Positions 7,782-49,260 of a stretch of 63,414 nt of DNA are shown here, in pieces. The DNA comes from a virus (lineage: Duplodnaviria > Caudoviricetes), in the IMG/VR virus record IMGVR_UViG_3300045996_000494, positions 1 to 63,414 of that record; one strand, 5' to 3'. The position numbers were made by a program, and so were the translations under genes. The stretch's first letter is position 1. Each line of letters starts with the position of its first letter. The notes under the pieces are model-generated. The model did not search any database. It was not told where the DNA came from and was given only the letters and a program-made list of their open reading frames with translations.

Positions 7782-10700
7782 TCAGTCTCCCTGCAGCGCC
7801 GCGCGCCGCTTCTCTTTGTCCGCACGGATAGCGTCGAGCGCCTTGGTGCCGATCTTCTGGCGGGTGCGCTTCACCTCGTCTGCCTGCTTGTTGTGGATCA
7901 CAATGCGTGCCCTAATTTTCAACAGCTCGCTCGATGACCCAGCTTCGAGGTACTGTCGCTGCAGTCGCTTACGCTCCTCTTCGAGCTTCTTGCCGATGGC
8001 GATATTCGCGCCTGTCTTTTCGCCCTCCTCAGCCATCCGAGCCGAGCGGGCACCGGCTGCCTGAATGAACGCCTCGGACGTTGTGATGTCCCGGTTTACC
8101 CTCTGGGTAACTGCCTTCGCCGTGTCAGCCACGAACTTCGCCGGCACAGCCTTGATGAAGGCTTTGCCCAGATCGCCGTCTGCCGCGTGCTGTCCGGCGT
8201 CGGCCCAGTCCAGCATGAGCGAGGCAGGGGCGCCACCAAGAAGGCGAAACATGTACGCCTCGGCGCCCTCACGGTCCCCAGACTTGGGCTCGCCGAACAG
8301 CCACATGTCGGACATCGACACGCGCGACGACAGGTCGGGGAACGGGATGAACTGCGCGATCCCGCGGGCGAGAATGCCCTTGTTGATCAGCTCCTCCGGG
8401 GTCTTGCCGACCGTCTCCGCGAACCACTTGCGCCACTTGCGCTCTTGATCATCCCAGCCATCGCTGAGCCCGAGCATGGATGCTATCACGAAGCCGGTCT
8501 TTAGCAGCTCCAGCCCAGGCAGCCCCATGGCGCCAGCCATCGCCATCTGCACGGTCAGTAGCGCGCCGATCTGCCCCCAGGCGATGCGCTTCTCATGCGG
8601 CGTGCCAAACCCCGCCTTGCGCACCATGTCGACTAGCAGCGCCGTGACGTTCTGTGCGAACTTCTTGAACTGCAGCGCGGGCGCTGCAAGCGGATGGCTG
8701 AAGAACCGCGGCTGGTTGAACGCAGCGTAGTTGAACTGCGAGCGGTCAATAATGTCCTTGGCATGCGCGATAGCTTGCTCCTCGGTCATCCCCGAGCTTC
8801 GGCCAAGGCGGTAGGCGGCCACGGCGCTGACAGAGCGGTTGATGTCCTCGACGGCGATCATCATCTGGCGCGCGATGCGCTCGGCCTTCGCAATGGCCAT
8901 GCGCGTCTTGCCGGCGCCGGCAGAGATCGATGCCGCCAGCTCAAAGCCAGCCTCCGAGCCCAGCTGCCCCGTCGCCTGCAACTCGTTGATCAATTCGGTC
9001 AGCGCCACCCCATCCGGCTCCGCCGCTACGCGCTTGCGGATCGAGCCGATCAGGTCCGACGTGTCGAGCCCGAACTTGTTGAAGTGGCGGATCGCCTCCC
9101 CAGTGTTCGCCAGCCCACCGCCCAGCACGGTGTGCGCGCCAACAGCGCGGTAAGCCCGGTTCACCGCCGCCATGCTCCGCAGCGCCCCGTAGTGGCCTGT
9201 GAGCACCGGCACTGTGAACATGTTCGGCTGCAAGCTATTGACCGCCAAGTACATCGGCGAAAACAGCTTATCCATGAATGACAGCGTCAGCGCGAGCCTC
9301 ACCCACGGATGCTGCTCACGTGGGTTGATCACGTTCCGGTCGATGCGCGCTACCAGTTCGTTGAGCACTTGGTTGCGCGCCTGCATGAACTTGCTCTCGG
9401 GCTGGTCAGCGATCAGCCGGCGCATATCCTCAAGCGCGTCCCGCACCGTCGGCATGTAGCGCAGCTTGCCGAGATAGTTCGATGCCGCCGTGGCGTACTG
9501 CACAGTGTTGCGCGCGATGTCCTGCGAAGCCCCAGCCACGTTGCGGCGTGGTAGCGACCGCTGCTGGATGCGGTTGCCCGCCATGAGCCGCACCGACGCT
9601 TCTTTGGCGGCGTTCTTCAGCACCTGCTTGAAGCCAGCGTCGATGTCCGTCCGCTTGTCGATCACCGAGATGATCGACGCGAGCTGCGTATTGGTGAGAT
9701 CGCCGCCCTGCTCTGCTTCCTGACGGTCGAGCGCCTTACTGTCGGTCCACTCGAACTCGCCGCGGTTCTCCTCGATCCACCGCGCCGCCTCGCGCCCCGT
9801 GTCGAACATCTGCAGCCCGCGGCGCTGCACGCGAGCGCGGTAAGCCACCTCGTGCTTCTGACCCTTGGCGTCCTCGGCCGACACGATGGTGCCGTCCGGC
9901 AGATAGCGGCGCTTACCCACTGAGGTAATCTTGGCGCCGGTGCTCTCGGCAAACGCCTTGTATTGCACGCGTGCCGCCGCGTCCTTCGGCGCCCGCCACT
10001 CGATGATGACGTTGCCATGCTTGTCAGTCTCTACGATCTGGCCGCCGTGAAGATCACCGAGCCTCGCCCGCGTCCGCACCACCTTCTTGCCGTGGCGCAT
10101 GAGCGGGACGTAGATGCCCTTGACTACCCGCAGCTCGCCGGAGTCACGCAGAGCGTTGAACAGCGTCGGGTTGTCGAGGATGCCGGCGTCGTCCTCAGTC
10201 AGCGTGCCGTTCAACGTGTTGTTGAAAAGCTGTGCGTAAGCCTGTGGAGAAATGTCGCCCGGCGCGAGCGAACGCAGGATGTTGCCGACCAGCGCCTTGG
10301 TCATCTCGTTCTGCATGTCGCGGTAGTAAGTGGCGCTGTCGAGGATGTATTTCTGCACGTCGGTGGGCAGCGCCGCGAACTGCTGCTCCAGCCGTGCTAG
10401 CTGCGCCTTGTTCTGGTAGTTGCGCGCCACGTCCTTGCCGAGATGCGAGTTGTCGGCGTTCGGCCCCAGGTTGACGTTCGCCATGGTGGCGTCGATCCAC
10501 ACGCCGGCGGCGCGGCCCATCACATCGCGGCCGTGCTGCTCGATCAGCTGCAGCCAGCCCTGCGCGATGGCCTCGCCATCCTTGCGCTTGTTGTCGACGT
10601 AAACCGCCTGCTTGCTCAGCGCCTCGTAGATGCGGTCGAGCGGGTTGCCTTCGCCGCGCGCGCCCTCGAACGCCGGCCGCATGGTCCGCACGATCTGGTC

Positions 10701-13700
10701 GACTGTACCGGCCCACAGCCCGGTCCGCCTCCACCACGACTCTGCAGCAGCCCCGAGATACCGACTCTCATTCTGCAGCGTTTGTACGGTCTCGCTGACC
10801 TCCATGGGGAATGCTGTAAGCGGGTTCATCCTCCCTTGCCGCTGCGTGGTCTCGTCTAGCGCCTGGGCGACTCGAACGATCTGCTCTAGTACGGTGCGCG
10901 GTGGCCCACCCTTCCCAAACAGCGCCTTCTTGATCCCGAGTATTAGCGCATCCCAAGCTGACATGCGCTGCGAAGCACGACTAAGCCGGTTACCGACTAG
11001 TATATCGGCAATCACGTCGAACTGAGTGCGTTCAAGTATCTCTACGAAAGCACGATTTGAAAATGCCTCCGAGATGAACTCGTGGGGATTGGTTAATCCA
11101 TAAGGGACTCGATACTTGGTTTCACCAGCCGCTCGCGCCTCTTCTGCAAGCTGTGCACGTACAGCGTTCATCAAGTGCCCAATAAAAGTCCGCGCATCCT
11201 CGTTAGTATCAATAGCTCGATGGTATGCAGCGTGCAGTCCTTCGTGAATGATTATCTCAGCATTCAAATGATCAATATCAACAAAAATTTCATCAGTCTG
11301 CGAGGTATAGAACGCTCGCACTTTGCTCGTGTCCCTACCTGAAAAAAAGTGCTCTTTGGCAGCGTCCTGAAACGAAACCGGATCAAGCACGTGCACCCGC
11401 ACATCGCCGGCCAGCTTGCGGATGCGGTTCGCCGCCTCCGTCATCATCAGCTTGTGGACGCCGGTCAAGTTGGCGTCCAGCATCAAGCCACGGATAGCGT
11501 CTTTCAGCGCGCCGGTCCGGTAGACAAGCCCTTCCGTGACTGGCGCCTCAGCCTCCACCGCTTCACGGGCGAGCGGCACGTCAAGCGGCGCATCCTCTCG
11601 CGCTTGAGCAACCAACTGCTCCCGCGCCTCCGCCGGCGTTGTAGCGGTTGCTGTACCGGCAGCGGCTTGGTTACCCCGCCGGGTAATGGCAGCGCGTTCC
11701 TGGGGCGTAAGGATCGTCCGCTTCTTGCGGGTCTCCACCACCGCCACACGCTTGGCGCCGCCGATGACCGCGCCCTCCATGGCAGCGGCGGCCTTCGCCG
11801 CCACCTCAGCCTTGCGAGCCACCTCTGCAGCATCCAACTCCGCCTGCCGCGCCGCGGCGCGCTTGGCGTCGATCTCGTCGACAACCTCTTCCTCGGGGGC
11901 GTTCTCCACGGCACCGGCGGTCGTCGTGCCCCGCGGCGCGGGAGCCTCACCCTTCTCGTCCCTGAGCGCCACACCGCCCTCGGTGTGCGACTTGGTGAAC
12001 TCCTCGCCGCCACCCTGCCGCAGGCCGGTGTCTGTGACGACGAAATCCCGCACGCGGCTGACCGTGCCCTGGCCCTTCCCGATGGCGATGGCATCGCGGA
12101 TCAGCCGCAGCGCCGGGTCCGCATCGGTCTTGAGGTTGGCAAGCTTGATGTCGCCGACCTGAGCCAGCTCGACCAACTGCCTCGCGTAGGCCCTCAGCTG
12201 AGGCGTGGGAGCCTCTAGCGTAGGGGCGACAGGGAATTGAGCCTGCGCCGCACGAACGCGCTCTGCGAGCCCCGCTAGCTCTTCCTGGCGCTTCTGGCGG
12301 TCCAGGTCCTTGGCGCTGAGGATTTTCTCGGCGCCCGCCTCGATCTGTTCCTTCTTGCGCCGGCCCATGCGCGACGGCCCTTTGGCCTCGACTTTGAGAT
12401 TGCCGGCTGCGTCAATGACCAGCGCCTGCTCCTTCTTCGGAGCTTTCACATCTTCGAGCACGCGACGTGCAGGGCCGATCTCGATCCGCGACTGATCGCC
12501 GGGTGACGGCATGACCAGCTGGCCGATACCCCAGGGGTTACCGTCCTCGTCCACCAGTCCGAGCCTGCTGACGGAGCTGATAGTTCGCGGCTTCCCCTCG
12601 ACGACGTACTGAACCGGTCGACCGGCAGCGAGCGCGTCTTTCACCTCCTGTCGAACAGCATCGCCGGCGGCGGCCATGTCAAAGCCGGCGGCCGTCGAAT
12701 GAACTGCCTTGAGCATGTCGCCGGTAATGGTGCGCGTGCCTTCAGCTAGTGCAGGTGCTGCTGGCTCGACGAGCGGCGCCACTGGGGGTCCACCCACCGG
12801 AGCGGGCGGCGTGGCTTCCTCTGGTAGTGGTGGCTCGGCTGGCTGAACAGGAGGCGGTACGGCGGCAGCGGCAGGCTCTCCCGCCCCAATAGCCGCCGCC
12901 ATCTGTGGCGTAACCACAGGGACGCTAGGGACCGCAGGAACAGGAGGCGCAGGATCAAGAGGTTCAATATCGTCATCGGGGATGAACTCTTCAGTGCTTC
13001 CGCCAAGCTCGGGATCGTAAACGAGGGCTGCCGCTACATCCGGGGCCAGAACATCCGGTGCGACCGGGGCAGCCTTAGTAACCTGCTCCACCACACCCGC
13101 ATTGGCACCTCCTGCTTTCACCGTCTTGTCGAGCGCGTCCAGCTCCTGGCCGGGAGTCGTGCGCTTCTGGTCGAGCGTCACCTCCGGCCCGGCGTCCGGC
13201 GCCATGGCGCCGTTACCCGGCGGGGTAACCGGCGGCAGTGGCTCAGGACTGAGCGCCGCCGCGTTGTCCACGTCGATCTGGCGGTCCTCGACCACCGGCC
13301 GGCCGGGTGCGGCCTGCGCCGTGATAGCTCCCACGCCGCCGCCCAAGACACCGCCGACCAGCGCGCCGGACGCGGCGGCTTCCAGCGCCTTACGCCAGTC
13401 ATGGTCGCCAGCGCCGCCCTTGGCGTCGAACACCCCTTCCTGAGCCAGCAGCTCGCCAGAGGCGCCCTCGATGCCCTCCTGCGCTGCCTCACCCAGTGCG
13501 CCAAGCGCAGTGCCACGCAGCACCCCGCGGCCGGCCTGCCCCGCCGCCCGGTGCGCAACGAGACCCTCGACACCGTAGCGGGACGTGAGCGCCGTGATCG
13601 CCGCCATGATGAGCGGCTTGTAGCCGGCAGCTTCCTGAGTAAGCATGGACTTGGCGACGGCTTCGTCCATGCCCATGCCGCGAAGCCCGCGGTAGGTCTC

Positions 13701-14237
13701 GCTCTCCCGCTGCAGCTGCTCGTCCGGCGTCTTAGTCAGCTCGTCGCTGATCTGATTGAACACGTCGCCGCCGCTGAGCGCACCCGCCGCCGCGCCGCCC
13801 GCAGCCACGCCTGCTCCTGCCGACGAGGCGATGCGCGCCGCGAGCCCGCCGGGGATGATGCTGGCAAGTAGGCTCGGGACCGCCTGTGCTGCCCGCAGCC
13901 CGATGGCGTTGCTCGTTGAGACACCTGAGCCCCAGATGGTCTCCCCATCGCCGGGCAGCACAGTGGCGCGCATGGCGCGCTGCGCCGCCGGAGACATGCG
14001 CTCGGCCTGCCCTTCTGCGCCCTGCCGTGCCCACTCGCGGATGTCCGACAGCTCGTTGTCGGGTTCCGGCTTGATGGCGTACTCAGCCGCGCCAGCCAGC
14101 CCGCCAACCACACCATAGCCGCCTGCCGCGAGCGAGCGGACGTAATCGCTCAGTTCCACACCGCCGTCAGGTGACGTGCTGAACGGTGCTCCGGGTCCAG
14201 CTACAGGGGCTTCGTCAAGCCTGAGTGCGGAAGCCAT
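7782..14237 (-). CDS. Giant internal virion (ejection) protein with an embedded zincin-like metallopeptidase domain
   Basis: 2151 aa, Ala-rich and helical, last of three post-tail genes; IIIHEGLHAAYH...NPHEFISEAFSN. Confidence 0.8.
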   Translation of the reverse strand: MASALRLDEAPVAGPGAPFSTSPDGGVELSDYVRSLAAGGYGVVGGLAGAAEYAIKPEPDNELSDIREWARQGAEGQAERMSPAAQRAMRATVLPGDGETIWGSGVSTSNAIGLRAAQAVPSLLASIIPGGLAARIASSAGAGVAAGGAAAGALSGGDVFNQISDELTKTPDEQLQRESETYRGLRGMGMDEAVAKSMLTQEAAGYKPLIMAAITALTSRYGVEGLVAHRAAGQAGRGVLRGTALGALGEAAQEGIEGASGELLAQEGVFDAKGGAGDHDWRKALEAAASGALVGGVLGGGVGAITAQAAPGRPVVEDRQIDVDNAAALSPEPLPPVTPPGNGAMAPDAGPEVTLDQKRTTPGQELDALDKTVKAGGANAGVVEQVTKAAPVAPDVLAPDVAAALVYDPELGGSTEEFIPDDDIEPLDPAPPVPAVPSVPVVTPQMAAAIGAGEPAAAAVPPPVQPAEPPLPEEATPPAPVGGPPVAPLVEPAAPALAEGTRTITGDMLKAVHSTAAGFDMAAAGDAVRQEVKDALAAGRPVQYVVEGKPRTISSVSRLGLVDEDGNPWGIGQLVMPSPGDQSRIEIGPARRVLEDVKAPKKEQALVIDAAGNLKVEAKGPSRMGRRKKEQIEAGAEKILSAKDLDRQKRQEELAGLAERVRAAQAQFPVAPTLEAPTPQLRAYARQLVELAQVGDIKLANLKTDADPALRLIRDAIAIGKGQGTVSRVRDFVVTDTGLRQGGGEEFTKSHTEGGVALRDEKGEAPAPRGTTTAGAVENAPEEEVVDEIDAKRAAARQAELDAAEVARKAEVAAKAAAAMEGAVIGGAKRVAVVETRKKRTILTPQERAAITRRGNQAAAGTATATTPAEAREQLVAQAREDAPLDVPLAREAVEAEAPVTEGLVYRTGALKDAIRGLMLDANLTGVHKLMMTEAANRIRKLAGDVRVHVLDPVSFQDAAKEHFFSGRDTSKVRAFYTSQTDEIFVDIDHLNAEIIIHEGLHAAYHRAIDTNEDARTFIGHLMNAVRAQLAEEARAAGETKYRVPYGLTNPHEFISEAFSNRAFVEILERTQFDVIADILVGNRLSRASQRMSAWDALILGIKKALFGKGGPPRTVLEQIVRVAQALDETTQRQGRMNPLTAFPMEVSETVQTLQNESRYLGAAAESWWRRTGLWAGTVDQIVRTMRPAFEGARGEGNPLDRIYEALSKQAVYVDNKRKDGEAIAQGWLQLIEQHGRDVMGRAAGVWIDATMANVNLGPNADNSHLGKDVARNYQNKAQLARLEQQFAALPTDVQKYILDSATYYRDMQNEMTKALVGNILRSLAPGDISPQAYAQLFNNTLNGTLTEDDAGILDNPTLFNALRDSGELRVVKGIYVPLMRHGKKVVRTRARLGDLHGGQIVETDKHGNVIIEWRAPKDAAARVQYKAFAESTGAKITSVGKRRYLPDGTIVSAEDAKGQKHEVAYRARVQRRGLQMFDTGREAARWIEENRGEFEWTDSKALDRQEAEQGGDLTNTQLASIISVIDKRTDIDAGFKQVLKNAAKEASVRLMAGNRIQQRSLPRRNVAGASQDIARNTVQYATAASNYLGKLRYMPTVRDALEDMRRLIADQPESKFMQARNQVLNELVARIDRNVINPREQHPWVRLALTLSFMDKLFSPMYLAVNSLQPNMFTVPVLTGHYGALRSMAAVNRAYRAVGAHTVLGGGLANTGEAIRHFNKFGLDTSDLIGSIRKRVAAEPDGVALTELINELQATGQLGSEAGFELAASISAGAGKTRMAIAKAERIARQMMIAVEDINRSVSAVAAYRLGRSSGMTEEQAIAHAKDIIDRSQFNYAAFNQPRFFSHPLAAPALQFKKFAQNVTALLVDMVRKAGFGTPHEKRIAWGQIGALLTVQMAMAGAMGLPGLELLKTGFVIASMLGLSDGWDDQERKWRKWFAETVGKTPEELINKGILARGIAQFIPFPDLSSRVSMSDMWLFGEPKSGDREGAEAYMFRLLGGAPASLMLDWADAGQHAADGDLGKAFIKAVPAKFVADTAKAVTQRVNRDITTSEAFIQAAGARSARMAEEGEKTGANIAIGKKLEEERKRLQRQYLEAGSSSELLKIRARIVIHNKQADEVKRTRQKIGTKALDAIRADKEKRRAALQGD

Positions 14238-14240
14238 CGA

Positions 14241-16703
14241 TCACGGTGCTTCTGGTAGGAGACTGGGCGGCAGATTTAGAGCCCGGTTCCGGCGAGCGCC
14301 AGTCGGCGCGGTCGCGCCGGGAGTGGCCGGCTGCACACGATAGTTTGGACCCCAACGCTTCTGCCGCTCGCTCTCGGTGATGCGCTCCCGCATCTGCGCC
14401 AGCGCGATGAGGTTCTGGCGGCTGAGCAGCACCGGCGGCAGGTTGCCCACCTGCAGAGAGCCATCCGGTAGGACGCGCGGCTTCGAGTTACCCGACAGCG
14501 CCTCGCGCGTGATATTGATGGCGTCGTCGTTGGTAAGCCGGTTACCGGACGTAGCCCTGATCTCCGCGGCGATCTGCGAGGCCCACAGATGGTCGGTGGA
14601 CGTGCCTTCCTTCCACACCGTCGGCAGCTTGTCGCGGATTTCCTTGAAGTCTGTCTCGTCGACCTCTCGCTCTTTGGCGGGCATGCGCTGCAGAGCGGCC
14701 TGCGCCTGGACCGGTCCGACCTCGGTCTCGACGGCGCGCCGACGCACCTCCGCAGCAGTGCCCTCGCTTACCCCACGAGGTAGCGGCGTCGTGGTCTCCA
14801 CTGCCTCGATGCCTGCCTGCTCCGCAGTGTCCACCGCACCAAGGCGCCGGCTTTCGGCGGCTTCCTTCGCAGTCAGCTTGACGCCGGCACCGTCCTTCGT
14901 GGCTGTGCGCTTGTCGAGGATACGCTGGTCGATCTCCTGCTGGCGCTTACGGCGTGCGTCCTGGCTCTGGTCGAAGCGCTTGTTCCGCCCCTCTTCCTGA
15001 GCCTGCAGCTGCGCGAGCTTCTGCTCGTGCATAGTCATCACGCCCTCACGGGTCTTTTCCCACATCCCGTAGCGGGTGGCGAACTTGGCGATGTCGAGCG
15101 CTTCCTTCCGGTCGAGGTTCTCCGCGCCCTTCTTCATGCGCTCGTCGAACTTGAACTCGTCGAACGCCTGCTTGCGGTCGCGCTGCCACTCACGAACGGT
15201 GCGGTTCTGTTCCTCGGTCGGCATGTCGAGGAACTTCTTGCGGGACTCGTCGCTTGGGCGCGAAGCCATGAAGTCGCTGCGGTCGTCCTCGCTGAGCGTG
15301 GACTGGTACGCCTCCACGGACGAGCGCGCTTTCTCTGCCTTGCGCTCCGCAGCGGTCGGCTGCGAGGTGGCGAACTGCACCATGCTGCGCAGGTACTCGG
15401 TGCCGTTGACCATGCCGGTCGCCATCTGCACCATGTCGTCGATAGCCAGAGCGCCTTTCTCCGTCACGCGCCCCTGCGCGTCGTGCAGCTCGAACTTCAC
15501 GCCGTCGCCGCTCTTGCCCTTGATCTCCAACGTGTTGCCGTCAGGGACGAGCTGGTTGTAGCCCTTGGCGATAATCTCCGCGCGCTTTACGGGGTCATCG
15601 ACGGCGAGCGCCGCCGCGCCATACTGGGACGCTGCACGCTTCGCTGCACTGAGCATACTCCATGCCGCCCGGTCGGCCTTCTGCGGTTCGCCGCGGGCGG
15701 ACCAATACTGGTAGATGGCGTTGTAGCGCGCGACCTCCCGCAGTTCGGGAGGGAGCTGTCCCTTTGGGTCAATGGTCTGATCGACCATGGCGATCTCTTC
15801 GCGCCGCGGCGCGCCGGCATTGGTGGCGAGCGCCCTTACCCCGTCGGGGTTAATCCTGGCGGCTTCCGGCACGGCAGCATGGTGTGTCTCTGCGCCGAGC
15901 ATGCGCTGGCCGAACTTGAGCCCGCCGGCCACCGCGCGGCGCGCGCCCTCCACGTTCACTAGGTCGCGTGGGTCGTAACCATCATCCGGGTCCGTATTCT
16001 CGTAGGCCGCGGCCACCGCCGGGTTCGAGCCAGCGTGCTCGGTGTCGGCTAGGTCGGTCGGGATCACGCCGCCGCGCGCCGCATAGACCACCGGCACGGT
16101 CTCGTCGTCGAGACTGAGGGCGAAGCGGTCACCGGGACGGCGGAAGAAGCGCCGCGCGCCGCCGCGCGCCGTGGCGACAGGCGAGCCGTCATCCCATGCC
16201 GGGGGCTTACGTCCAAGCTTTGCCTGCGTGTCGGCGTCGTAGAAGTGCGTGGCGCCCTTGAGCGCGTTGCGCTTGGTTCGCAGCACCTCTTCCCAAGCCT
16301 GCCGCGCCGCCTCGACGCGGTCCTGCGGCTGATCTTGCCACGAGCCCCGGCTGACCGGCTCGAAAGCTCCTTCGTAGGCGACCACCTTCACCGGGTCGAC
16401 CTTGGCCGCCTCGGCGCGGTTGCGGATCACCTCAGCCACGTCATAAGGGTCGCCGCCCTCGGCCGCGATTACCTTCGGAATGTCGGCCGCAGTCAAGGAA
16501 ACGCCGCTCGTCCGACCAGTACTGGGGCGCGGTGAAGTACCCCGTGGGGTAGCTGTGGCCGCAGCCGTGTCGCCGGCGATGCGCGCGCCGCGCAGCCCCT
16601 CCGCTTCCTCGCGGTACAGCTCGTCCTTCCAGTCCGTCTTGAACGCCTTGTACGTATCGCGGAAATTGGACGCGAAGTCCTTCAGGTCTGCAGCGAAAGA
16701 CAT
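14241..16703 (-). CDS. Internal virion protein with an N-terminal SleB/Hydrolase_2-like cell-wall hydrolase domain
   Basis: IAAEG...VAEVIRNRA...GATHFY...PAW motifs; position among the ejection genes. Confidence 0.75.
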   Translation of the reverse strand: MSFAADLKDFASNFRDTYKAFKTDWKDELYREEAEGLRGARIAGDTAAATATPRGTSPRPSTGRTSGVSLTAADIPKVIAAEGGDPYDVAEVIRNRAEAAKVDPVKVVAYEGAFEPVSRGSWQDQPQDRVEAARQAWEEVLRTKRNALKGATHFYDADTQAKLGRKPPAWDDGSPVATARGGARRFFRRPGDRFALSLDDETVPVVYAARGGVIPTDLADTEHAGSNPAVAAAYENTDPDDGYDPRDLVNVEGARRAVAGGLKFGQRMLGAETHHAAVPEAARINPDGVRALATNAGAPRREEIAMVDQTIDPKGQLPPELREVARYNAIYQYWSARGEPQKADRAAWSMLSAAKRAASQYGAAALAVDDPVKRAEIIAKGYNQLVPDGNTLEIKGKSGDGVKFELHDAQGRVTEKGALAIDDMVQMATGMVNGTEYLRSMVQFATSQPTAAERKAEKARSSVEAYQSTLSEDDRSDFMASRPSDESRKKFLDMPTEEQNRTVREWQRDRKQAFDEFKFDERMKKGAENLDRKEALDIAKFATRYGMWEKTREGVMTMHEQKLAQLQAQEEGRNKRFDQSQDARRKRQQEIDQRILDKRTATKDGAGVKLTAKEAAESRRLGAVDTAEQAGIEAVETTTPLPRGVSEGTAAEVRRRAVETEVGPVQAQAALQRMPAKEREVDETDFKEIRDKLPTVWKEGTSTDHLWASQIAAEIRATSGNRLTNDDAINITREALSGNSKPRVLPDGSLQVGNLPPVLLSRQNLIALAQMRERITESERQKRWGPNYRVQPATPGATAPTGARRNRALNLPPSLLPEAP

Positions 16704-31684: not shown

Positions 31685-32050
31685 CTACGCTACCAGACGC
31701 TTGATAACTGACATAGTGCCTGAGAACAACGGCACAATCACCCCCGAGGAGACGATGGTCATCCGGGTTTGGTGAAAAAGCTTCTTCTGCCCGCGACCCA
31801 CAGTGTCCGAGCCCTGAAGGTAAATGACCACGGTGGACTGACCGCCATTCGTCACAAACGTGACATCCCCGAGCGCAGTACTTTTCTTGATGGGCACGGA
31901 AGCCGCGGCGTCGAACTGCGAGGGTGACGCCCACCACTCGATCAGCGATGGGACTGGAATTTCATAGGGCATGCCGTTCCACGTGATGGGAACAGACAGG
32001 GTGTGAGGGGCACCCTCGATCACCTCAAAGTCTTGGTTGGGCACGCTCAT
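31685..32050 (-). CDS. Small beta-rich virion protein
   Basis: 121 aa, ATGA-coupled to the repeat protein gene. Confidence 0.65.
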   Translation of the reverse strand: MSVPNQDFEVIEGAPHTLSVPITWNGMPYEIPVPSLIEWWASPSQFDAAASVPIKKSTALGDVTFVTNGGQSTVVIYLQGSDTVGRGQKKLFHQTRMTIVSSGVIVPLFSGTMSVIKRLVA

Positions 32051-33984
32051 TGGAATGAACCTTCTAGCTCGTCTGCGTTCTGGACGCTACCACGAAGCTC
32101 GCCGCCCACCTCCGCCGAGCCCTCCAGGCTGCGGCCAAAGACCGTGCTACCCCGTAGGGTAATCTCGCGGCCACCGAAGATCGCCAGCGCCGGGGTGTGG
32201 AACGGAGACACATCGCTGCCGAAGATCGGCACGGCGTCTGCAACGGTCGTGAGCGTGTAGTGGATCGGCGACCGGGTAAAGACCGGCGTGACGGTCGCGC
32301 CAGTGATCGGGACCGTACCGGCGGTGATCGTGACGGTGCCACTCTGCGACCAAACCGGCGTGACGGTCGCGCCAGTGATCGGGACCACACCGGCAGTGAT
32401 GGGCGGCTCGTACCGCCCGTAGACCATCGTGACAGGCTGGCCGACAATCTCGACCCACCCGGCGATCCACGCTGCAGTGACACCCACTGAGCCTGTGACA
32501 GTCTGCCCAGCAATGGCGACCGTGCCAGCCGTGACGCTGATCGTGTAATTGACGCCACCTCCCGACCACACCGGCATGATGCTGGCGCCGGTGATCGGGA
32601 AAATGTCGGCGTCGACGACAATGCCATAGCCGAAAACCGGGCTGACTGTCTGGCCAACGATGTCGACCGTCCCGGCGGTGATCGTGACCACTCGACCAAA
32701 GACCGGAGTGACTGTCTGCCCGACAATGGCCACGGTCCCGGCAGTGATCGTAACCGTATAGCCGGTGCCCTCGATGGGCGTGACGGTCTGACCGGTGATC
32801 GCGACCGCACCCGCAGTGACGCTAATCGAGCGCCCGTAAGCGGGAGTGACGGTCTGGCCAACGATGGCAACTGTGCCCGCCGTGATCGAGACCGCTCGGG
32901 CGAACACCGGCGTGACCGTCTGCCCGACGATGGCGACCGTGCCAGCGGTGATCGCAACAGCACGTCCGTAGGCGACCGCGACCGTCTGCCCGGCGATGGC
33001 GACCGTGCCAGCCGTGATGCTGGCAGTCCAGCCGCGCGCAGGCGTAACTGTCTGCCCGATGATGTCCACGGTCCCAGCGGTGACCGTGATGCTGTAACCG
33101 CCGCTCTTAACCGGGTTGACCGTCTGCCCGACGATGTCGACCGTGCCAGCGGTGATGCTGATCGTGCGGCCAAAGACGGAGGTGATGGTCTGCCCAGTGA
33201 TCGCGACGGTGCCAGCAGTGATCGCCACCGCGCGCCCGTAAGCTGGCGTGACGGTCTGACCGGTGATCGCGACCGCACCCGCAGTGACGCTAATCGAGCG
33301 CCCGTAGGCAGGCGTCACCGTCTGCCCGGTAATCGCAACCGTGCCAGCTGTGATCGCGACAGCCCGCCCGAACACCGGCGTGACGGTCTGGCCGACGATG
33401 TCGACCGTCCCAGCGGTGATCGAGATCGTATAGGAACTGCCCGAGCCATAGACCGGCGTGACGGTCTGCCCGACGATGTCAACGGTCCCGGCAGTGATGC
33501 TGATCGAGCGCCCGTAAGCGGGCGTGACCGTCTGCCCGACGATGTCAACGGTGCCTGCGGTGATCGCGACCGCACGGCCGTAGGCGGGTGTAACAGTAGC
33601 GCCGGTGATCGCGACCGTACCGGCAGTGATTGTCGGCTCGATGCGCCCGTAGCTCGGAGTGACGGTCTGACCAACAATCCCAACGGTGCCGGCAGTGATC
33701 GCGACGGCGCGCCCGTACGCTGGCGTGACCGTCTGCCCGGTGATCGCAACCGTAGCAGGAGTGATAGCCGGCTCGACGCGCCCGTAGTTCGGAGTGACCG
33801 TCTGCCCGGTGATCGCAACGGTGCCGGCAGTGATCGTAATGTCGTAGCCGACTACCGTGTCCTCTTGGACGAGATAGCCAGAGCCGTCCTCAAGGAGGAT
33901 GCCGAAGCCGTCCTCCTGCAGGATTTTCCCGCCTGCAACCGTTCCTACGAGCGAGATGATCGGGACGCGGACGCGCAAAGCCAT
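32047..33984 (-). CDS. Repeat protein with about 24 copies of a ~22-aa unit (ITAGTVAITGQTVTPxYGR)
   Basis: Repeats counted in the translation; exact 62-bp DNA duplication at 32777-32838 and 33245-33306. Confidence 0.85.
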   Translation of the reverse strand: MALRVRVPIISLVGTVAGGKILQEDGFGILLEDGSGYLVQEDTVVGYDITITAGTVAITGQTVTPNYGRVEPAITPATVAITGQTVTPAYGRAVAITAGTVGIVGQTVTPSYGRIEPTITAGTVAITGATVTPAYGRAVAITAGTVDIVGQTVTPAYGRSISITAGTVDIVGQTVTPVYGSGSSYTISITAGTVDIVGQTVTPVFGRAVAITAGTVAITGQTVTPAYGRSISVTAGAVAITGQTVTPAYGRAVAITAGTVAITGQTITSVFGRTISITAGTVDIVGQTVNPVKSGGYSITVTAGTVDIIGQTVTPARGWTASITAGTVAIAGQTVAVAYGRAVAITAGTVAIVGQTVTPVFARAVSITAGTVAIVGQTVTPAYGRSISVTAGAVAITGQTVTPIEGTGYTVTITAGTVAIVGQTVTPVFGRVVTITAGTVDIVGQTVSPVFGYGIVVDADIFPITGASIMPVWSGGGVNYTISVTAGTVAIAGQTVTGSVGVTAAWIAGWVEIVGQPVTMVYGRYEPPITAGVVPITGATVTPVWSQSGTVTITAGTVPITGATVTPVFTRSPIHYTLTTVADAVPIFGSDVSPFHTPALAIFGGREITLRGSTVFGRSLEGSAEVGGELRGSVQNADELEGSFQ

Positions 33985-42690: not shown

Positions 42691-43383
42691 TTACTTCTTG
42701 TAGTTCTTCGTCCGCGGGCGACCCTGCTTCTTGGCCGCTGCACGGTCGTTGCGGGCAAGGTGCTCGCCGACGGTCTCGTCTTTATGGCCCCGCGGCACGG
42801 GCTCGGCGACGCGCACCGGCTGCCCCTCGGCGTCTGCCGCGCCGCGGCGGATTTCTTGGTTGGCAGTGCCTGAGCGCTCCGCACCGCCGGAGACCTTGCG
42901 CTTGCGCGGGCTCTCCAGGGGGGCGTTCTCTGCCGCCTCGAAGTCTGCCTGACGCTCACTACCAGCAGCCATCTCCTCCTCGGTCTCGGGGGTGACGAAC
43001 CCCTCCTGGCCGACAGTGAGCTGCAGCGGGTCATCCTTGGCGAGGCGCTTTTTCTCCAGCTCCGCCCGCACCTGCTCGGTCAGCGGCAGGAAGCGGAAGG
43101 CGGCGGTGGCGCTGCGCTTCTCTTTCTTCACGGTCTCCCCACCGTCGATGGGGAACTCTTCGAGGATCACCTCCTCCTGCTCCAACGACTGGCGCGGCTC
43201 GTAAATCTGCACGAGGTACGGCCGGTTGTTGGGCGCCGTGATGATCATGCGGAAATCCGGGTCCGGCGCGGCGTTCTCGCCGGCAGGAGAGACACGAGCC
43301 GGGGCGACGCCCGCGGCGATCTTAGTCACCCGGCTTTGCGGGTTCTGTGACGAGGGCAGGGTCTGTGGTTCGATCCGCATCAT
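42691..43383 (-). CDS. Hypothetical protein
   Basis: AGGAG RBS, 230 aa, typical codon usage. Confidence 0.7.
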   Translation of the reverse strand: MMRIEPQTLPSSQNPQSRVTKIAAGVAPARVSPAGENAAPDPDFRMIITAPNNRPYLVQIYEPRQSLEQEEVILEEFPIDGGETVKKEKRSATAAFRFLPLTEQVRAELEKKRLAKDDPLQLTVGQEGFVTPETEEEMAAGSERQADFEAAENAPLESPRKRKVSGGAERSGTANQEIRRGAADAEGQPVRVAEPVPRGHKDETVGEHLARNDRAAAKKQGRPRTKNYKK

Positions 43384-43421
43384 AGTCTCCTAGGCGGCAG
43401 GGGAGCCGTTGCCGCGGCACT

Positions 43422-43598
43422 CTACGTGGTTTCACGAGCTTTGTCATCGCGCGCTTTTTTCTGCGCCTTGACAGCCTGCGCGTAGGTCGAGAACCAGCCG
43501 ATGCGCTCCCCGGTCTTGCGATCCTCCACAGAGAAGCCGTTACCGGGATCACAGATCGCAAAGCGGGCAGTGGAGGTGTTGCGGTATAAAGTGCTCAT
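43422..43598 (-). CDS. Small hypothetical protein (58 aa)
   Basis: MSTLYRNTSTARFAICDPGNGFSVEDRKTGERIGWFSTY...DKARETT; coupled to the HTH gene. Confidence 0.6.
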   Translation of the reverse strand: MSTLYRNTSTARFAICDPGNGFSVEDRKTGERIGWFSTYAQAVKAQKKARDDKARETT

Positions 43599-43879
43599 CA
43601 CGTGGTTTCCCGAGCTTTGTCAGCATAGTCGGCGCGGACCAGTCCGTCGTCGATCCATGACAAAACGTCGAGCTTGCGATAGTAGGTCTTTCGCCCAAGG
43701 TAGACGAACACGGGACCGGTGCCGGTCTGCCTCCACCCATTGAGGGTGTACTCGCTGATCTCCAGCATGGACGCCAACTCGCCGGGGGTCATCAGCCCCA
43801 GCTCGCGCCGGAGCTTCTCGCCCTGCGACGGGCTGCGTGATGTAGATGTTGTAGGGGTCTTTGACGGGGATCGGGACAT
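43598..43879 (-). CDS. Excisionase/AlpA-like winged-HTH DNA-binding protein
   Basis: LMTPGELASMLEISEYTLNGWRQTGTGPVFVYLGRKTYYRKLDVLSWI; GGAG RBS. Confidence 0.85.
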   Translation of the reverse strand: MSRSPSKTPTTSTSRSPSQGEKLRRELGLMTPGELASMLEISEYTLNGWRQTGTGPVFVYLGRKTYYRKLDVLSWIDDGLVRADYADKARETT

Positions 43880-44997
43880 AGCAGGTTGTCTCCATAACGT
43901 AGGCAACAGCCAAAGCCTGGGTCAGCAGCTCCGCGGCCCAAACATCAGTTTGCAGCAGCCAGACCTGAAAGAGGTTGAACCTTATGTCGGCACGCTCGTG
44001 CTGATCGCTCATTTCCGCAGCCCTCGTGCGAACTCCCATGTTCGCTCTTTGCCGGCCAGCTCTTCCCACTGCAGACTGGCCATGTTGTTGACCCACTCTG
44101 CAACGCGGCGCTGCCAGTCGTTCCACCAATAGTCGGCACGAAGCCAGGAGTCGGGGTTGGTCTGTGTCGGCATCACTTTACCTCAGATGGCCTGCGCTTC
44201 ACGCAGACCCTTGCGGATTTACCTCTCGGGGTAATTGGTACTGCTGACCGGGGGATGGCTTCAGAGATTTCCAATACATGAAGGCTATAAAAGACATATC
44301 GGTCAGCACGGCGGCATGGTTAAGTAGGTGGTACATTTCCCAGTCCATCAAATGGTCGGCAAACTCTGCTGTCTGATCCTGCCAGTGGACGGCACTGACA
44401 GCGTCGAGATCAAATGTGTACCATTCAAGCAAGTAGACCATTAGTCGTCCCAGAACCAACGCTCGGAGTGATCGAGCTGGATCATGCAATTGAACATAGC
44501 TATATCGGCAGCCCCCCAGTTGAAAAAGGGAAGATAATCTTCAAGAGTGAGGTGGTTCATTTCCACAATTTCTCCTGCTCTTGCCATATAGCATAATGGG
44601 CAAGCTGCCACATGCGACGCTGCAGCAAATTGTAATAGTAGCGGGAGAAGCGGGCGCGGTTCATAGCCACCCTCGCCACACAGCGACGACATGTGCTGCG
44701 TCCATCCCAAGCCCCGCCATTGCGCTGTCGAGCGCCACCTCCGCCACGTACCAGCATATATGGTCAAGCTGCGCAGAGTGGTAGATCATCGGTATGACAA
44801 CACGATATTCAGCTGTTCGTAGAGGGCATAGTCGGCAGTGGAGAGCTTCATCGCCTCCAGAATGGCGAGGTTGTGGTTGAAGGTCATTCGACTAACCGGT
44901 TCAGCTCGGCAAGAGTGCTACTCTGAGCAATCAGCCAGCAGATCGCCCGCAGCTCGATCAGGGTGGCAGTGGGGGGAGTGGGTACGGGCATGGGGGG

Positions 44998-45026
44998 TAT
45001 TTAGTGGCTCTCGATGGGGTTGTCAA
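44998..45026 (-). promoter_or_regulatory. Leftward sigma70-type promoter
   Basis: Minus strand TTGACA-17 nt-TAAATA, upstream of the leftward small-gene cluster. Confidence 0.55.
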
Positions 45027-45289
45027 GTGTTGGGGGAGTTTTCAGTGGGATAGGGTGGATTTTGGGAAAATTTTACTTTTTTATTGGGTGTGGTCGGTTG
45101 ACGCAGTTGGTGCTCAAATCGTCGATTGGGTGGCCTAGTAGGAATGAGACCAGGGGGAGGGGGGACGAAAATTTTTTGTTACATTAGGGTTTGGTAGGCT
45201 GGGTATTTTCAAGACACCCTAAAAGATGCCCGGCCCCCCACCCCGGCGCCTGTCCAGATACCCCCACGGGGGTCCCGACCCTTAATTCC

Positions 45290-45950
45290 TGCCGCCTATG
45301 GGGAGAGACCGAACCGCAAGTGCCTAGTGCCCCGGTTCAGCCCGAGCTTACTTTACGACGCCCCTTGGCGGGGCGTGCGGCCGGGTGCTACACAGGAAGC
45401 CAAGCGTGACGCGCAACCCACAGGGGCGCGTCGCCCGCAAGGCTATGCGGTACCGAGCCCCACAAGTTGCCTGAGACATGGCGGCGGGTCTCCCCGAAAC
45501 GAAACTCACACCCGTTGATATTGGCAAGGCATCACAGCAGACTACCTAACCGACCCTCGCGTTGGTGCTCGTAACCTCAAAGGCGCATCGCCCCGTATGT
45601 TGCGGCATCTCCAAAGGCTCTCGGCAGGACGTTGAGCGACCATGTGCTCGGAAACACATGGCCCATGACAGGAGCGAGGCACTAGCAACGCCTCCCCACG
45701 CAGCCTACTCGGCGGCGAGTTTAGGACTAGGCGTGAAAATGTCTCTCTTGCCGCGCCTTGCGCTGCATGCTTGGAACGCTGCCTCGCACTGTCCAGGGCT
45801 TGATTGCTTCAGACAGTGCGATGCGTTTCGGGCGGTGCGGTGCCCGACCAAGCGCGGCCCTGTTAGTTTCCCGACCGGGACATGGCGCAAGCTGTGTCCC
45901 GGTTGCTTTGCGTTGGCGTCACGGTCCTGCGGGACTGTGACACGCAACGC
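45290..45950 (+). ncRNA. Candidate large structured RNA or 5' leader
   Basis: At least ten consecutive stems, plus-strand G-U pairs, a GCAA tetraloop and no credible ORF. Confidence 0.6.
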
Positions 45951-45965
45951 AACCGGAGACTGACA

Positions 45966-46475
45966 ATGTCCAAGATGAACCTCTACACCACGGCTGCCGA
46001 GATCGCCGCCGCGACCATTAAGTTCACGAAGGCCAACGTGCGGCTCGAAACCGAGGCACACAAGTTGGCTTGCAGCGTGCTCGCTCACGTCGGCGAGTAT
46101 GGTGACATCCATGTTGTGTCGCGCTTCCTGGCCAGCTTCTCAGAGATGGCGCGTGTCAACGCTGCCCGTGCGTGGTTTGAAGAGTTCGGCCCCGTTACCT
46201 TCGAGGGTAACGAGCCCAAGTTCGTGCGAGGCAAGAAAACCCGCCTCGGCGAGGCGATGGACACGTTCTTCTGGAAGTTCGTGAAAGAAGGCGTGTACAA
46301 GCCGGTCGACCCACAGGCGGAGTTGGTCAAGCTCACCAAGCGCCTAAAGACCGACACCAAGAAAACCGGCACCGATCATTCTGCCATCATCGCCGCTCTG
46401 AGCGCGATTCGCGTCCAGATGCACACCCCTGCTCCGGCGCTGCTCATGATCGAGCACCAGCCGGCAGTTCACTGA
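45966..46475 (+). CDS. Conserved early phage protein
   Basis: GGAG RBS, 169 aa, strong codon bias, followed by a terminator. Confidence 0.8.
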   Translation: MSKMNLYTTAAEIAAATIKFTKANVRLETEAHKLACSVLAHVGEYGDIHVVSRFLASFSEMARVNAARAWFEEFGPVTFEGNEPKFVRGKKTRLGEAMDTFFWKFVKEGVYKPVDPQAELVKLTKRLKTDTKKTGTDHSAIIAALSAIRVQMHTPAPALLMIEHQPAVH

Positions 46476-46487
46476 GCGTTACTGAAT

Positions 46488-46517
46488 TGCGGCGGGCCTA
46501 TTGAGCCCGCCGCGTTT
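46488..46517 (+). terminator. Rho-independent terminator
   Basis: GCGGCGGGC-ctattga-GCCCGCCGC followed by GTTTGT. Confidence 0.7.
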
Positions 46518-46545
46518 GTCCCTTTGCGCAACAAAATTACACAGG

Positions 46546-47060
46546 TGATGTTTTATACATCAGTTCTGGGTGTGCAAACATCAGTCCTGGGTGTGCAAAC
46601 ATCAATCTTGATGTGCGCACCCCCCAAAGCTGATGTGCCAGACATCAACGGAGCGGCCCGCAAACGGGCGAAATAGGCCCAAAACGCCTATTTCGGCACG
46701 ATTTGTACTGAAAAAGGTAAGTAGGGCTGATTTTGGGAATTGATTGATGGACAAAAAACTCTAGAGATTACAGATAGATATAGATATATAATAATATAAA
46801 TAAGTAATACCTGTTTTCCTGCAACCTGATGGAACTCGCGGCGGCTTGATAGGCTCGCCCGCAATCCGTCCGCATGCCAGATATCTGCCCCTGTCTCCAT
46901 TTTTTGCAATTATATTTGTTACAATACCATAAGCCTATGAAATCATTGGGCTATTAAGATTGTACAAACGTTCGTATATTGCATTACATTCGCACAGTTA
47001 TGAAATCATTGAGCTTTTTCGTTTATATTATATATCCAAGCTCCGCCTATTCCACCCCTT
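46546..47060. other. Putative replication origin: 21-bp tandem repeats plus AT-rich tract
   Basis: Three 21-mers at 46557, 46578 and 46599; AT-rich tract at about 46760-46810; 13-bp repeat at 46936 and 46999. Confidence 0.55.
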
Positions 47061-47469
47061 CAACTCGTGGAATTATCATGCTGACACTCATCCGTCGCTT
47101 CTTCATCTACCGCGCTCGCTTGCGGTTATATAAGCACCCCGAGCTTTTGTGCGTGCAGGCTCGCCGCCAGATTTGGCTTGAGACCCTCTAACCCCGCGAG
47201 GTGAACGTGAAGCACCCCCACTACGAGAGTGACGCGGCTCGACAGCGCCGCGAAGCTCGTGAGCGTGCCGAGGACGAGGCGCGTGCCTATCTCGCCGCTC
47301 AACGCTCGCAACCCCAGCCGCGCCGCATCTGGCACAACGGCTGACCCCTTGGCCAGCTCGCCAGCCTATCTCGACCGCTGGTGCCTACGCCGTGGAGCTG
47401 GCCATTTTACGAGCAGGCGGCTGCGCGTGCCGCCGCATAACCCCATGAGGTGACTGCCATGTATATGTG

Positions 47470-47845
47470 AGGGTTGCCGTGCAGGGCTCCTGCCGCCCAG
47501 TGCCGGCGCTAACCCCCAAGCGCTTTTCCCTATAGCGGCACCATCGGCATTGTGCGGACCCGCCCAGGTAGCGGGTAGCTGCCAGCCGCACGACGTGAAG
47601 GAACCCTTATCGCCCATCAACTGCCCCTGTGTGGGGCGCGGGCTATCCTTGGCTGCCAGACGTGGCGCCGCCTGCCTTAGATGCCGTACCTTAGCTGCGG
47701 GCAGGAGCACGGCAAAGCGTCGAGCCTATGGACCACCACCTCGCTGACAGCAGCGCACCGCAAGGGGCCGGTGTAAAAGCCCAACGTCTGAGCGACGGCG
47801 TAACCATCCAGGCTGCCGGGTGCCTGCCCCAAACCCGGCGCGCCT
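47470..47845 (+). ncRNA. Second candidate structured RNA
   Basis: Long-range closing helix 47474-47494 with 47700-47715 enclosing nested stems; flanked by motifs at 47438 and 47848. Confidence 0.55.
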
Positions 47846-48597
47846 TTTCACCCATGAGGGTAATATCACAATGACCCTGCAAGAGATCGAGCGCGCCCTA
47901 GCCGAGGGCCGCATCTCCGCCCGCATGAACAGCGGCCGCCAGTGGCAAGTGCGGCGCAACGGCGCCACCAAGCTGTGGAAAACCCGCCCCGGCGACTTCC
48001 GCATCCCGGTCAAGGCCGGCTTCTGCGCGTGCGGTTACATCACGCAGGAGAACTTCGACCGCTCGTTCATCGTGAAGGAGGGCTAATGTCGGGAGTGAAA
48101 GACACCGTGGTGTACGCTGGCACCGACGGCAAGGTGACGCGCCAGGAGGGGCTGGGGTTCACCCAGTTCCTCGCCGTGCGCTGGGCTCGCGGCGTGCCGA
48201 AAAGCCGCTACTTCAACAGCGAGCGTGCCGCCAAGGCGTGGCTCGCGAAGCACCTCGCCAACGGCATGAGGTGAGAGGAGGGCTAATGTACCAAGTCATC
48301 GTCGAGTTCACCACTAGCGCGCCAGCGTGGCTCGGGCGCTACCACGATGCCGACAGGGCGCGTGACGTGTACGCTGCCCACGCCAACCGCAAGGACCGCA
48401 CCGGCTCGAAGATCAAGGCGGTGTTCCTGTGCAAGGATGGCGTCGTGGTGGCGCGAGCATAGGGCAACGAGTACCCCGCGCTAACCCCGTGGGGTATCGC
48501 CGCTCTATGAGCGACGCGCCTAGCGGCGCTTCGCCTAACCGCGGGACCGGTCCCGATGCGCGCCGGCTTAAGGTGCATCACACCCCGAGGTGCCTAC

Positions 48598-49260
48598 ATG
48601 ACCCAGTCGAACTCAATGTTCACCGATCTCAACGCTCTGCTGCGTTCCGTCCGCTCGCTTGCGGACAAGTACGCTCAGGGCTCGCTCTCCCGTCCCGAGA
48701 TGCTGGTCAACACCGCCATCGCGGCTCGTGAGGGTGTCGCCTCCACCGACGATGCCGAGGCCATCTGGGACGCCTTCGCCGAGCGTACCAACAAGAAGAT
48801 CGCCGATGTGACCGTCATCGGCGGCAAGGAGGGCTTCGGCTCGGACAAGGCGCATACCGTGCGCTGCTCCGAGGTGCGCACCGTCATCGCCGCGGCGATC
48901 AAGCACAACGATCTCCCCGAGGTGCTCAACGACGCACGTGTCACCGTCACCAACCTCAAGGGTGAGGGGCGCTACAAGGGCAACATGCAGGATGCCTTCG
49001 TCGCCATCGCTCGTGCCGCCAAGAAGAGCGACACGCCTCTGACCGAGGATGAGGTCATTGACGCCGTGTGCCCGGCACGCGAGTCGCCGGAGCGCACCGA
49101 GAAGAAGGAGCTGGAGAAGCTCAAGAAGCAGATGTGCGTGCTGCGCGACGGCACCAAGGGCAAGCCGGAGGAAGGCGTGCCGCCCAAGGAGCCGTTCGTG
49201 TCGGACGAGCTGCTTGCCATGATCGACCTGTGCGAGCAGCGCCTCGCGCAGTTCGTCTAA
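48598..49260 (+). CDS. Hypothetical early protein (220 aa)
   Basis: GAGG RBS, strong codon bias; its stop is the TAA of the motif at 49258. Confidence 0.8.
   Translation: MTQSNSMFTDLNALLRSVRSLADKYAQGSLSRPEMLVNTAIAAREGVASTDDAEAIWDAFAERTNKKIADVTVIGGKEGFGSDKAHTVRCSEVRTVIAAAIKHNDLPEVLNDARVTVTNLKGEGRYKGNMQDAFVAIARAAKKSDTPLTEDEVIDAVCPARESPERTEKKELEKLKKQMCVLRDGTKGKPEEGVPPKEPFVSDELLAMIDLCEQRLAQFV

Follow-up and report, generated by a model that had tools for sequence, protein, structure and literature searches.

The early leader of phage T7 carries an RNase III site ahead of gene 0.3, and the T7 sites are single hairpins of about 60 nt. For the N leader of phage lambda, the work of Wilson et al. in 1997 and 2002 is reportedly the source. 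As that leader is summarised in passages of PMC5725501, the transcript from pL carries nutL and then a highly structured, RNase III-sensitive stretch before the ribosome binding site (RBS) of N, translation of which is repressed; the gamma-proteobacterial BoxA consensus is given there as GYTCTTTAANA. PMC12286853 deals with the large ornate RNAs GOLLD, ROOL and OLE, and a comparative screen (Fremin, Bhatt and Kyrpides 2023, PMC10690425) reports 10,006 viral structured-RNA candidates, with cis-regulatory structures upstream of genes among them.

The stretch of DNA studied here, which we call the window, is the complete 63,414-base record of a virus with a terminal repeat of 127 bases, and its plus strand holds at 45304-45965 a predicted structured leader. 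As in lambda pL-N, a long structured leader would separate an early promoter from the first early gene and set the translation of that gene; unlike lambda, it is about three times longer and without a boxA-like element, an N-like protein was not found, an 11-bp helix pairs the RBS directly and the host would be an alphaproteobacterium. As in T7, non-coding RNA with long helices suited to RNase III precedes the first early gene of a podovirus, and homologues of this gene lie at the left end of Autographiviridae genomes, but in place of single hairpins there are more than 25 helices, and cleavage by RNase III is suggested by analogy. The RBS-occluding helix that marks a riboswitch-like expression platform has its counterpart in the 11-bp pairing between an anti-Shine-Dalgarno (anti-SD) strand and the Shine-Dalgarno (SD) sequence; a conserved sensor-like body lies upstream of it, and a sister type of leader has mutually exclusive anti-SD pairings. 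Unlike riboswitches, the leader is several times larger than known aptamers, has no match among the riboswitch models of Rfam and gave no alternative fold in the window type. It shares with GOLLD, ROOL and OLE a length above 500 nt and many covarying helices, and differs from them in that it adjoins and pairs the RBS of a gene, gives no covariance-model match and is represented by two sequences. Its placement upstream of a viral gene is like that of the cis-regulatory structures described in the viral screen, and it may be listed among the candidates there (PMC10690425). The leader works like an RBS-sequestering platform, sits like the lambda N and T7 early leaders, exceeds both of these in length by a factor of three or more, and matches no catalogued Rfam family.

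The portal protein and the family-A DNA polymerase of the window are 60% and 41% identical, respectively, to those of the Rhizobium phages RHph_TM27A, TM27B, TM29 and TM3_14A, which have genomes of about 61 kb, and judged by its sequence the phage is a Rhizobium-phage-like podovirus of about 63 kb. Since the first rightward gene also has three homologues in bacteria, one in Pannonibacter and two in Bradyrhizobium, the host is probably a member of the Hyphomicrobiales. The leader occupies a 975-base gap separating two divergent gene blocks, with the following features.

44991 leftward, minus strand: leftward gene block, first start at 44991 (ATG)
44999-45027, minus strand: leftward sigma-70-type promoter-like site, hexamers 17 nt apart, the second ending about 7 nt before the ATG at 44991
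45178-45303, plus strand: conserved upstream module, with a motif at about 45197-45227, a C-rich tract and a motif at 45250-45266
45304-45746, plus strand: Domain I, a multi-branched body of about 20 helices closed by 45304-10/45741-46
45311-38, 45340-86, 45392-451 and 45455-92, plus strand: hairpins of Domain I in the helix map
45406-45440, plus strand: variable arm of Domain I, a 35-nt stem-loop
45494-731, plus strand: sub-domain of Domain I that includes 45535-38/45631-34, 45564-609, 45640-61 and 45676-94
45747-45859, plus strand: Domain II, a long irregular hairpin
45750-56/45852-58, 45760-79/45823-43 (20-bp, G-U-rich), 45785-93/45812-20 and 45796-99/45806-09, plus strand: helices of Domain II
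45860-45965, plus strand: Domain III, a three-way junction of 106 nt with base helix 45861-71/45955-65
45872-905 (GCAA loop) and 45908-52, plus strand: hairpins of Domain III
45966-46475, plus strand: first rightward gene, 169 aa, family phrog_1448 of PHROGs (E 1.3e-27), SD GGAGA at 45955-59
45966 through the record end to 5396, plus strand: one-directional rightward gene block of about 23 kb

In Autographiviridae phages of Rhizobium and Pseudomonas putida, relatives of the first rightward gene lie at the left genome end. Its product matched no Pfam family and only unnamed viral clusters in the ESM Atlas, its AlphaFold2 model (pLDDT 76) had no Foldseek match at E<=0.001, and the best VIA-align Z of that model was 6.2, to generic helical bundles. 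The first gene of RHph_TM27A is not homologous to it. The roughly 2 kb past the gene (46476-48556) contain only short ORFs with weak start contexts (G+C is 0.52 in 46001-47000), yet are 71-81% identical to the contig of a related phage, L002, and could hold small early genes or more non-coding elements. A conserved motif of about 18 nt that includes the SD sequence lies directly 5' of the start codons of at least a dozen plus-strand rightward genes (copies at 703, 47188, 52078, 52315, 53392, 53586, 56987, 60308 and others); similar copies occur in RHph_TM27A, and the motif may be a shared translation-initiation or regulatory signal. On the minus strand, a 645-aa ORF without a Pfam family (32047-33984) contains about 23 tandem units of 66 nt (22 aa) and probably encodes a repetitive fibre or surface protein, while a 2151-aa protein with a weak LPD39 match (7782-14237) and an 820-aa protein with a cell-wall hydrolase domain (14241-16703) look like the ejected internal virion proteins of podoviruses.

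The original prediction, made from the sequence of the window by itself, was of about 650 nt of continuous RNA-like structure with no credible ORF ahead of the first early gene. All six frames of the leader contain at least five stops each in both the window and L002, the seven internal indels between the two (six of 1 nt and one of 35 nt) break every frame, and their 124 substitutions are split 53/37/34 by phase; a small conserved ORF within the leader is ruled out by these stops, indels and substitution phases. Folding of the plus strand of 45290-45950 gives -300.3 kcal/mol compared to -271.2 +/- 8.2 for dinucleotide shuffles (z -3.54, 0/20 as good), thus bearing out the expectation of an energy better than shuffles, and the minus strand of the same stretch gives -305.8 kcal/mol (z -2.76). 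For the plus strand of 45745-45862 the energy is -65.7 kcal/mol (z -4.80), and for that of 45860-45975 (116 nt) it is -73.0 kcal/mol (z -8.67), in both cases with 0/200 shuffles as good.

Infernal with Rfam 15, the check that had been suggested for a new RNA, gave no matches at the gathering threshold over the whole window. When E-value mode was applied to 44950-46050, there were five matches, all far below threshold, the best with 20.3 bits where 100 are needed; a match to BjrC68 had 18.9 bits where 39 are needed. There was no match at E<=10 in this region to GOLLD, ROOL or OLE, families that are presumably present in Rfam, and the same search on 11 related loci gave four weak matches, none within a leader. 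Full-text word searches of the literature, which are not proof of absence, found no description of the element, and likewise nothing under the names of the TM27A-group phages.

Scanning IMG/VR under protein guidance gave 17 candidate stretches, of which two were confirmed. The window leader type comprises two sequences only, the window and L002. The first-gene protein of L002 is 86% identical to that of the window, and the same non-coding region lies upstream of it. The two leaders are identical at 589 of 713 aligned columns (82.6%), compared to 88%, 93% and 68% at codon positions 1, 2 and 3 of the adjacent gene (115/169 for third positions), which argues that the leader is under constraint. 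RNAalifold predicts 219 pairs for the two sequences, with none broken and 24 changed on both sides yet kept; a further 14 have changed on one side and are kept, and 10 lie in a hairpin present only in the window. In 60 column shuffles there were 6.3 +/- 1.7 compensated pairs (maximum 10), and the consensus energy was -194.5 +/- 9.2 compared to -288.5 for the real alignment, though z-values from such shuffles are inflated since they do not keep dinucleotides. Moving the 3' partners by 1-3 columns left 0-1 compensated pairs. Both controls are generous, owing to the fact that the structure was derived from the same two sequences, and despite this the covariation signal is far beyond chance. The leader is a real, selected, large RNA-type structure. 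Compensated pairs relative to L002 are distributed over Domain I, all on the plus strand, as follows.

closing helix of Domain I: 2 compensated pairs
45340-47/80-86: 2 compensated pairs
45356-64/70-79: 3 compensated pairs
45392-401/41-51: 1 compensated pair
45466-71/80-85: 1 compensated pair
45512-18/709-15: 1 compensated pair
45535-38/631-34: 2 compensated pairs
45564-75/599-609: 1 compensated pair
45640-46/55-61: 4 compensated pairs
45676-80/90-94: 1 compensated pair

Domain II has 2 compensated pairs and 3 G-U/G-C exchanges, and the two hairpins of Domain III have 3 and 1 compensated pairs, respectively. Several other searches for members of the window type were made. Exact or degenerate pattern scans of IMG/VR returned contigs that were already known and two coding-region matches without leader similarity, a protein-guided scan with P0004 found the L008 contig again and no new member, and P0003, a 67% identical protein, lies on a contig of 966 nt. 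A blastn search of 45000-46000 against public phage genomes gave no match. Seven sequencing runs contain the sequence, all of them soil DNA from four studies and none of them RNA; from four of the seven (X2, X3, X4 and X7), all contigs recovered were identical apart from a single fragment resembling L002, and new variants were absent.

What stands of the structured stretch as originally drawn is its non-coding character and its conserved fold, while two of its stems and the partner of its closing stem do not, and the argument for its strand is right only in part. Eight of the ten proposed stems are conserved, one in altered form and one only in the window. The stems at 45311-16/45333-38, 45358-76 (3 compensated pairs), 45640-61 (4), 45784-93/45812-21 (2), 45874-903 (3, with the GCAA loop retained) and 45908-47 (1) are all kept in L002. 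The stem at 45406-14/45426-34 is counted among the eight, yet lies within the variable arm, the 35-nt insertion that is present in the window and absent from L002 (alignment columns 202-236). The 5' half of the stem at 45435-50 falls in the stretch deleted from L002, and this stem is not confirmed. That at 45828-47 has one pair broken and another weakened in L002; its changed bases are unpaired in the consensus, where the segment instead forms the 20-bp helix with 45760-79. A closing stem had been placed at 45300-10/45487-95, and this does form in the minimum-energy fold of the window itself. However, changes on the 5' strand in L002 are unmatched at 45487-95, which is invariant, and are matched at 45741-46 with two compensated pairs, so that the closing stem is better drawn as 45304-10/45741-46, and 45487-95 and 45741-46 may be alternative partners of 45300-10. 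The suggested pseudoknot or switch pairing, 45291-300/45477-85, is compatible with L002, but through wobble pairs only, and a rival local hairpin (45466-71/45480-85) has a true compensated pair there.

The original prediction had also taken G-U pairs on the plus strand as a sign of selection on RNA. In helices common to both strands there are indeed 9 stacked G-U compared to 5 A-C positions, but over 45304-45746 the fold of the minus strand is at least as good. Watson-Crick covariation cannot choose the strand, since the minus strand also gives 19 compensated pairs, with an energy z of -8.6 against column shuffles. In Domain I the minus-strand energy is below that of the plus strand by 10-26 kcal/mol, as fits the composition of the plus strand (A>U, C>G), and counts of G-U and A-C choose neither strand. 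For Domains II and III the plus strand is better by 7-18 kcal/mol in both phages: by 7.2 kcal/mol in the window and 9.6 in L002 for Domain II, and with -73.0 compared to -54.8 kcal/mol for the stretch of Domain III in the window. G-U content does not fix the strand in the 5' two-thirds of the leader. The 3' third fixes it as plus, by these energies and by the helix at its end.

The 3' end of the leader is also where a function can be read most directly. In the 11-bp helix 45861-71/45955-65, the anti-SD strand pairs with the SD GGAGA and with the spacer to the last base before the AUG. L002 retains the three-way junction: the inner six pairs of this helix are identical there, while the outer five are rebuilt from other bases, with a one-base bulge. 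The structure of the leader thus covaries with the translation signals of a plus-strand gene, which argues that it acts in plus-strand RNA, and since the base helix of Domain III pairs the SD and spacer, translation of the first gene would depend on the state of the leader. The mean unpaired probability of the 17-nt RBS window is 0.30-0.31 in the full leader and 0.26-0.30 in the last 140 nt of the window and L002, and the RBS stays paired in both predicted ensembles; 45300-10 can pair either with 45487-95 or with 45741-46. No alternative fold freeing the RBS of the window type was found when these ensembles were compared, and its 'on' state is for this reason hypothetical.

Given that the SD-pairing helix is continuous with the rest of the structure, and that a second RBS-sequestering leader exists at the same locus, a leader acting in cis is the simplest reading, and with moderate confidence we favour 45304-45965 (plus strand) as the predicted structured 5' leader of the mRNA of the rightward block. 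Such an RNA would be transcribed from a promoter in 45030-45300, and its 5' end could lie as far back as about 45230. The roughly 550 nt of Domains I and II would set or sense the state of Domain III, which might be opened when the long helices undergo RNase III-type processing, when a factor or ligand binds, or in the course of co-transcriptional folding. Candidate RNase III substrates are the 20-bp helix 45760-79/45823-43 and the stacked 11 and 15 bp in Domain III, and opening by this enzyme is offered by analogy with the lambda N leader and the T7 0.3 site. The leader could perhaps control elongation too, with a termination-resistant RNA polymerase over the block of about 23 kb, which is an unsupported suggestion.

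The second type of leader comes from phages syntenic with the window. When metagenome contigs were scanned with a protein profile, 71 candidate stretches were obtained and 12 of them confirmed. Eight of the 12 (L008-L015, with L013 and L014 99.5% identical to each other) have in common a non-coding region before the gene that is conserved among them and differs from that of the window. The L008 contig matches the window on both sides of the leader, with 83-85% identity at 43001-43824, 76-82% at 44996-45299, 68% over the first gene and 79% at 48546-49247, whereas nothing in it aligns with 45300-45965. The sister leader is 447-517 nt as folded (including 14 nt of the gene), with invariant loop and linker motifs, and 35 of the 55 pairs in its seven-sequence fold have a compensated change. 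The 5' core has 27 pairs, 10 of them with both bases changed, compared to 3.6 +/- 1.3 in shuffles (0/500 as many), and slid controls give 1-4. The plus strand is favoured both by consensus energy (-35.8 compared to -27.0) and by the ratio of G-U to A-C cells (50:11 in the plus model and 38:26 in the minus model). A covariance model of the 102-position core (R1), which comprises an invariant 9-nt loop, a 7-nt loop and three helices, recovers its five training sequences as well as the untrained truncated L011 (42.3 bits) and L010 (20.0 bits). Neither the window nor L002 gives it a match at E<=10, and with the filters switched off its top hit in them is one hairpin, at 8.3 bits. The three bacterial loci of first-gene homologues in Pannonibacter and Bradyrhizobium have no match either. 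As R1 misses the window type, features are not transferable between the types by homology, and we treat the window type as a distinct variant and not as a shown homologue of the sister type.

The two types appear, by their predicted folds, to have RBS control as a common theme. The SD is paired in all seven sister leaders that were folded locally (L008, L009, L010, L011, L012, L013 and L015), by different sequences in each, and in four of the seven (L008, L009, L010 and L011) the start codon is paired too, with a conserved motif upstream. The first 40 nt or so of L008 (2054-2515), L009 (77-523) and L015 (77-562) can pair, by their complementarity, with the anti-SD strand close to the 3' end; this panhandle competes with sequestration of the RBS, and the duplexes between 5' end and anti-SD have energies of -58, -38 and -44 kcal/mol compared to -23, -9 and -24 for those between anti-SD and SD; the values for L009 are imprecise because the segment boundaries cut its anti-SD strand. 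In these three the RBS is unpaired at 0.56-0.62 in the full leader compared to 0.29-0.50 in the last 140 nt, whereas the same comparison of ensembles finds no such freeing of the RBS by the full leader in L012, L013, the window and L002. Closing of the 5' and 3' leader ends should thus turn translation on in L008, L009 and L015, and the modelled panhandle illustrates how long-range pairing can gate translation at this locus. The leader that RHph_TM27A has at this locus is likewise long and non-coding, and of a separate kind; it is 100% identical in four records and so shows no variation.

The module at 45178-45303 is the only sequence common to the window type and the sister type. By blastn it is shared with L002, L008, L009, L012 and L013/L014, and weakly with RHph_TM27A; it is present in a single copy in the window genome, its predicted helices have no compensated pairs, and it could be either promoter DNA or an unstructured RNA 5' end. 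A second partial copy lies in L010 (1569-1599), about 860 nt past the first gene, and would fit a repeated promoter-type signal. A stricter sigma-70 scan of 44700-46600 listed no promoter, and a relaxed scan gave only weak candidates for rightward RNA. One of these, with its second hexamer at 45296-301, was rejected because transcription from it would begin within the covarying helix that closes Domain I; given the compensated pairs at 45305-06, the first base of the RNA must be 45304 or lie upstream of it. Promoter candidates are the strongly conserved motif near 45217-45227 and the preceding A/T-rich tract. For leftward transcription, the hexamers of the site at 44999-45027 fit what we take to be the rhizobial sigma-70 pattern, and equivalents are found in L002, L008 and RHph_TM27A, where the copy is even better. 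With about 7 nt between the end of this site and the ATG at 44991, the 35-aa ORF that comes first in the leftward direction would either lack a leader or have a wrongly assigned start.

Other readings of the leader can be weighed against control in cis. The original prediction was of a new large phage ncRNA, for example a sponge, decoy or antitermination element; the large structure is real and has no Rfam family, but nothing points to a free-standing sponge or decoy. We consider it unlikely that the leader is a trans-acting RNA of about 550-600 nt, free-standing or processed, that is released by termination or cleavage near 45905 and serves as a protein sponge, as a decoy, or in anti-defence or host takeover; the RBS helix would then be secondary. 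The terminator-like hairpin at 45872-45905, with 15 pairs followed by 5 T in 8 bases, would suit such a release, though its U tract is a weak one and is absent from the corresponding hairpins of the sister leaders. The 1.9-kb stretch contains four terminator-like sites where 1.8 +/- 1.3 are expected. The size and helix count far exceed what RBS sequestration needs, and the leader body has been swapped for an unrelated-looking one within flanks that are 79-85% identical to L021, a pattern expected under diversifying pressure. However, the anti-SD strand 5' of the hairpin pairs 3' of it, so that an RNA terminated there would lack the conserved junction.

Less likely still is a cis-acting RNA for processive antitermination, put-like or nut/boxA-like, at the start of the rightward block of about 23 kb. 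Its place at the head of a long one-directional block (45966 to 5396) is as such an element would require, and no RNA polymerase was found among the 27 predicted proteins, a minority of ORFs, that were scanned with Pfam and PHROGs. In the RHph_TM27A leader an 11-mer about 60 nt in (L020 9765-9775) matches the gamma-proteobacterial BoxA consensus at 10/11 positions, but the window, L002 and all sister leaders have at best 3/11 mismatches to it, and sites of that quality are at background level in the window (88 and 81 on the two strands). The RHph_TM27A 11-mer occurs once or twice in each of three alphaproteobacterial genomes, where the loci of about 3 kb around four copies had no Rfam match at gathering level, rRNA included; its identity as BoxA is not validated, there being no rRNA near these four copies. 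A role of the hairpins in single-stranded or cruciform DNA, as a replication origin, a packaging or ejection signal or a physical genome end, seems to us very improbable. It would account for the equally strong Watson-Crick covariation of the minus strand, for the lower minus-strand energy of Domain I, and for the location at a divergent intergenic site adjoining A/T- and G-rich tracts (45040-45190). Against it, Domains II and III prefer the plus strand through G-U pairs, the sister type has an excess of plus-strand G-U, the base helix covaries and includes the SD of a plus-strand gene, and 45304-45965 contains no iterons.

A leader that controls translation in cis thus remains our preferred reading, and an extension of it, which we regard as doubtful, is that Domains I and II together form a large RNA that has a tertiary fold and an independent function, and that the RBS-sequestering junction reads out its state. 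As part of that same doubtful extension, the body could sense a host metabolite or protein, or act as a decoy for a host defence or RNA-binding factor. If this were true, the swap of leader types within flanks of 79-85% identity would record an arms race at the first RNA that the phage makes.

The locus provides a very large, covariation-supported early leader with two interchangeable types in one phage lineage. Solidly covarying structured RNAs of more than 500 nt are rare, and a clear output can be named for few of them. In the present case it can be read, because the structure ends in a helix hiding the start signals of the first rightward gene. The second leader type and the cultured relative RHph_TM27A make it testable what the phage senses or times with its first transcript, and the example shows that large RNAs can be sought in a place yet unexplored, the early leaders of alphaproteobacterial phages from soil.
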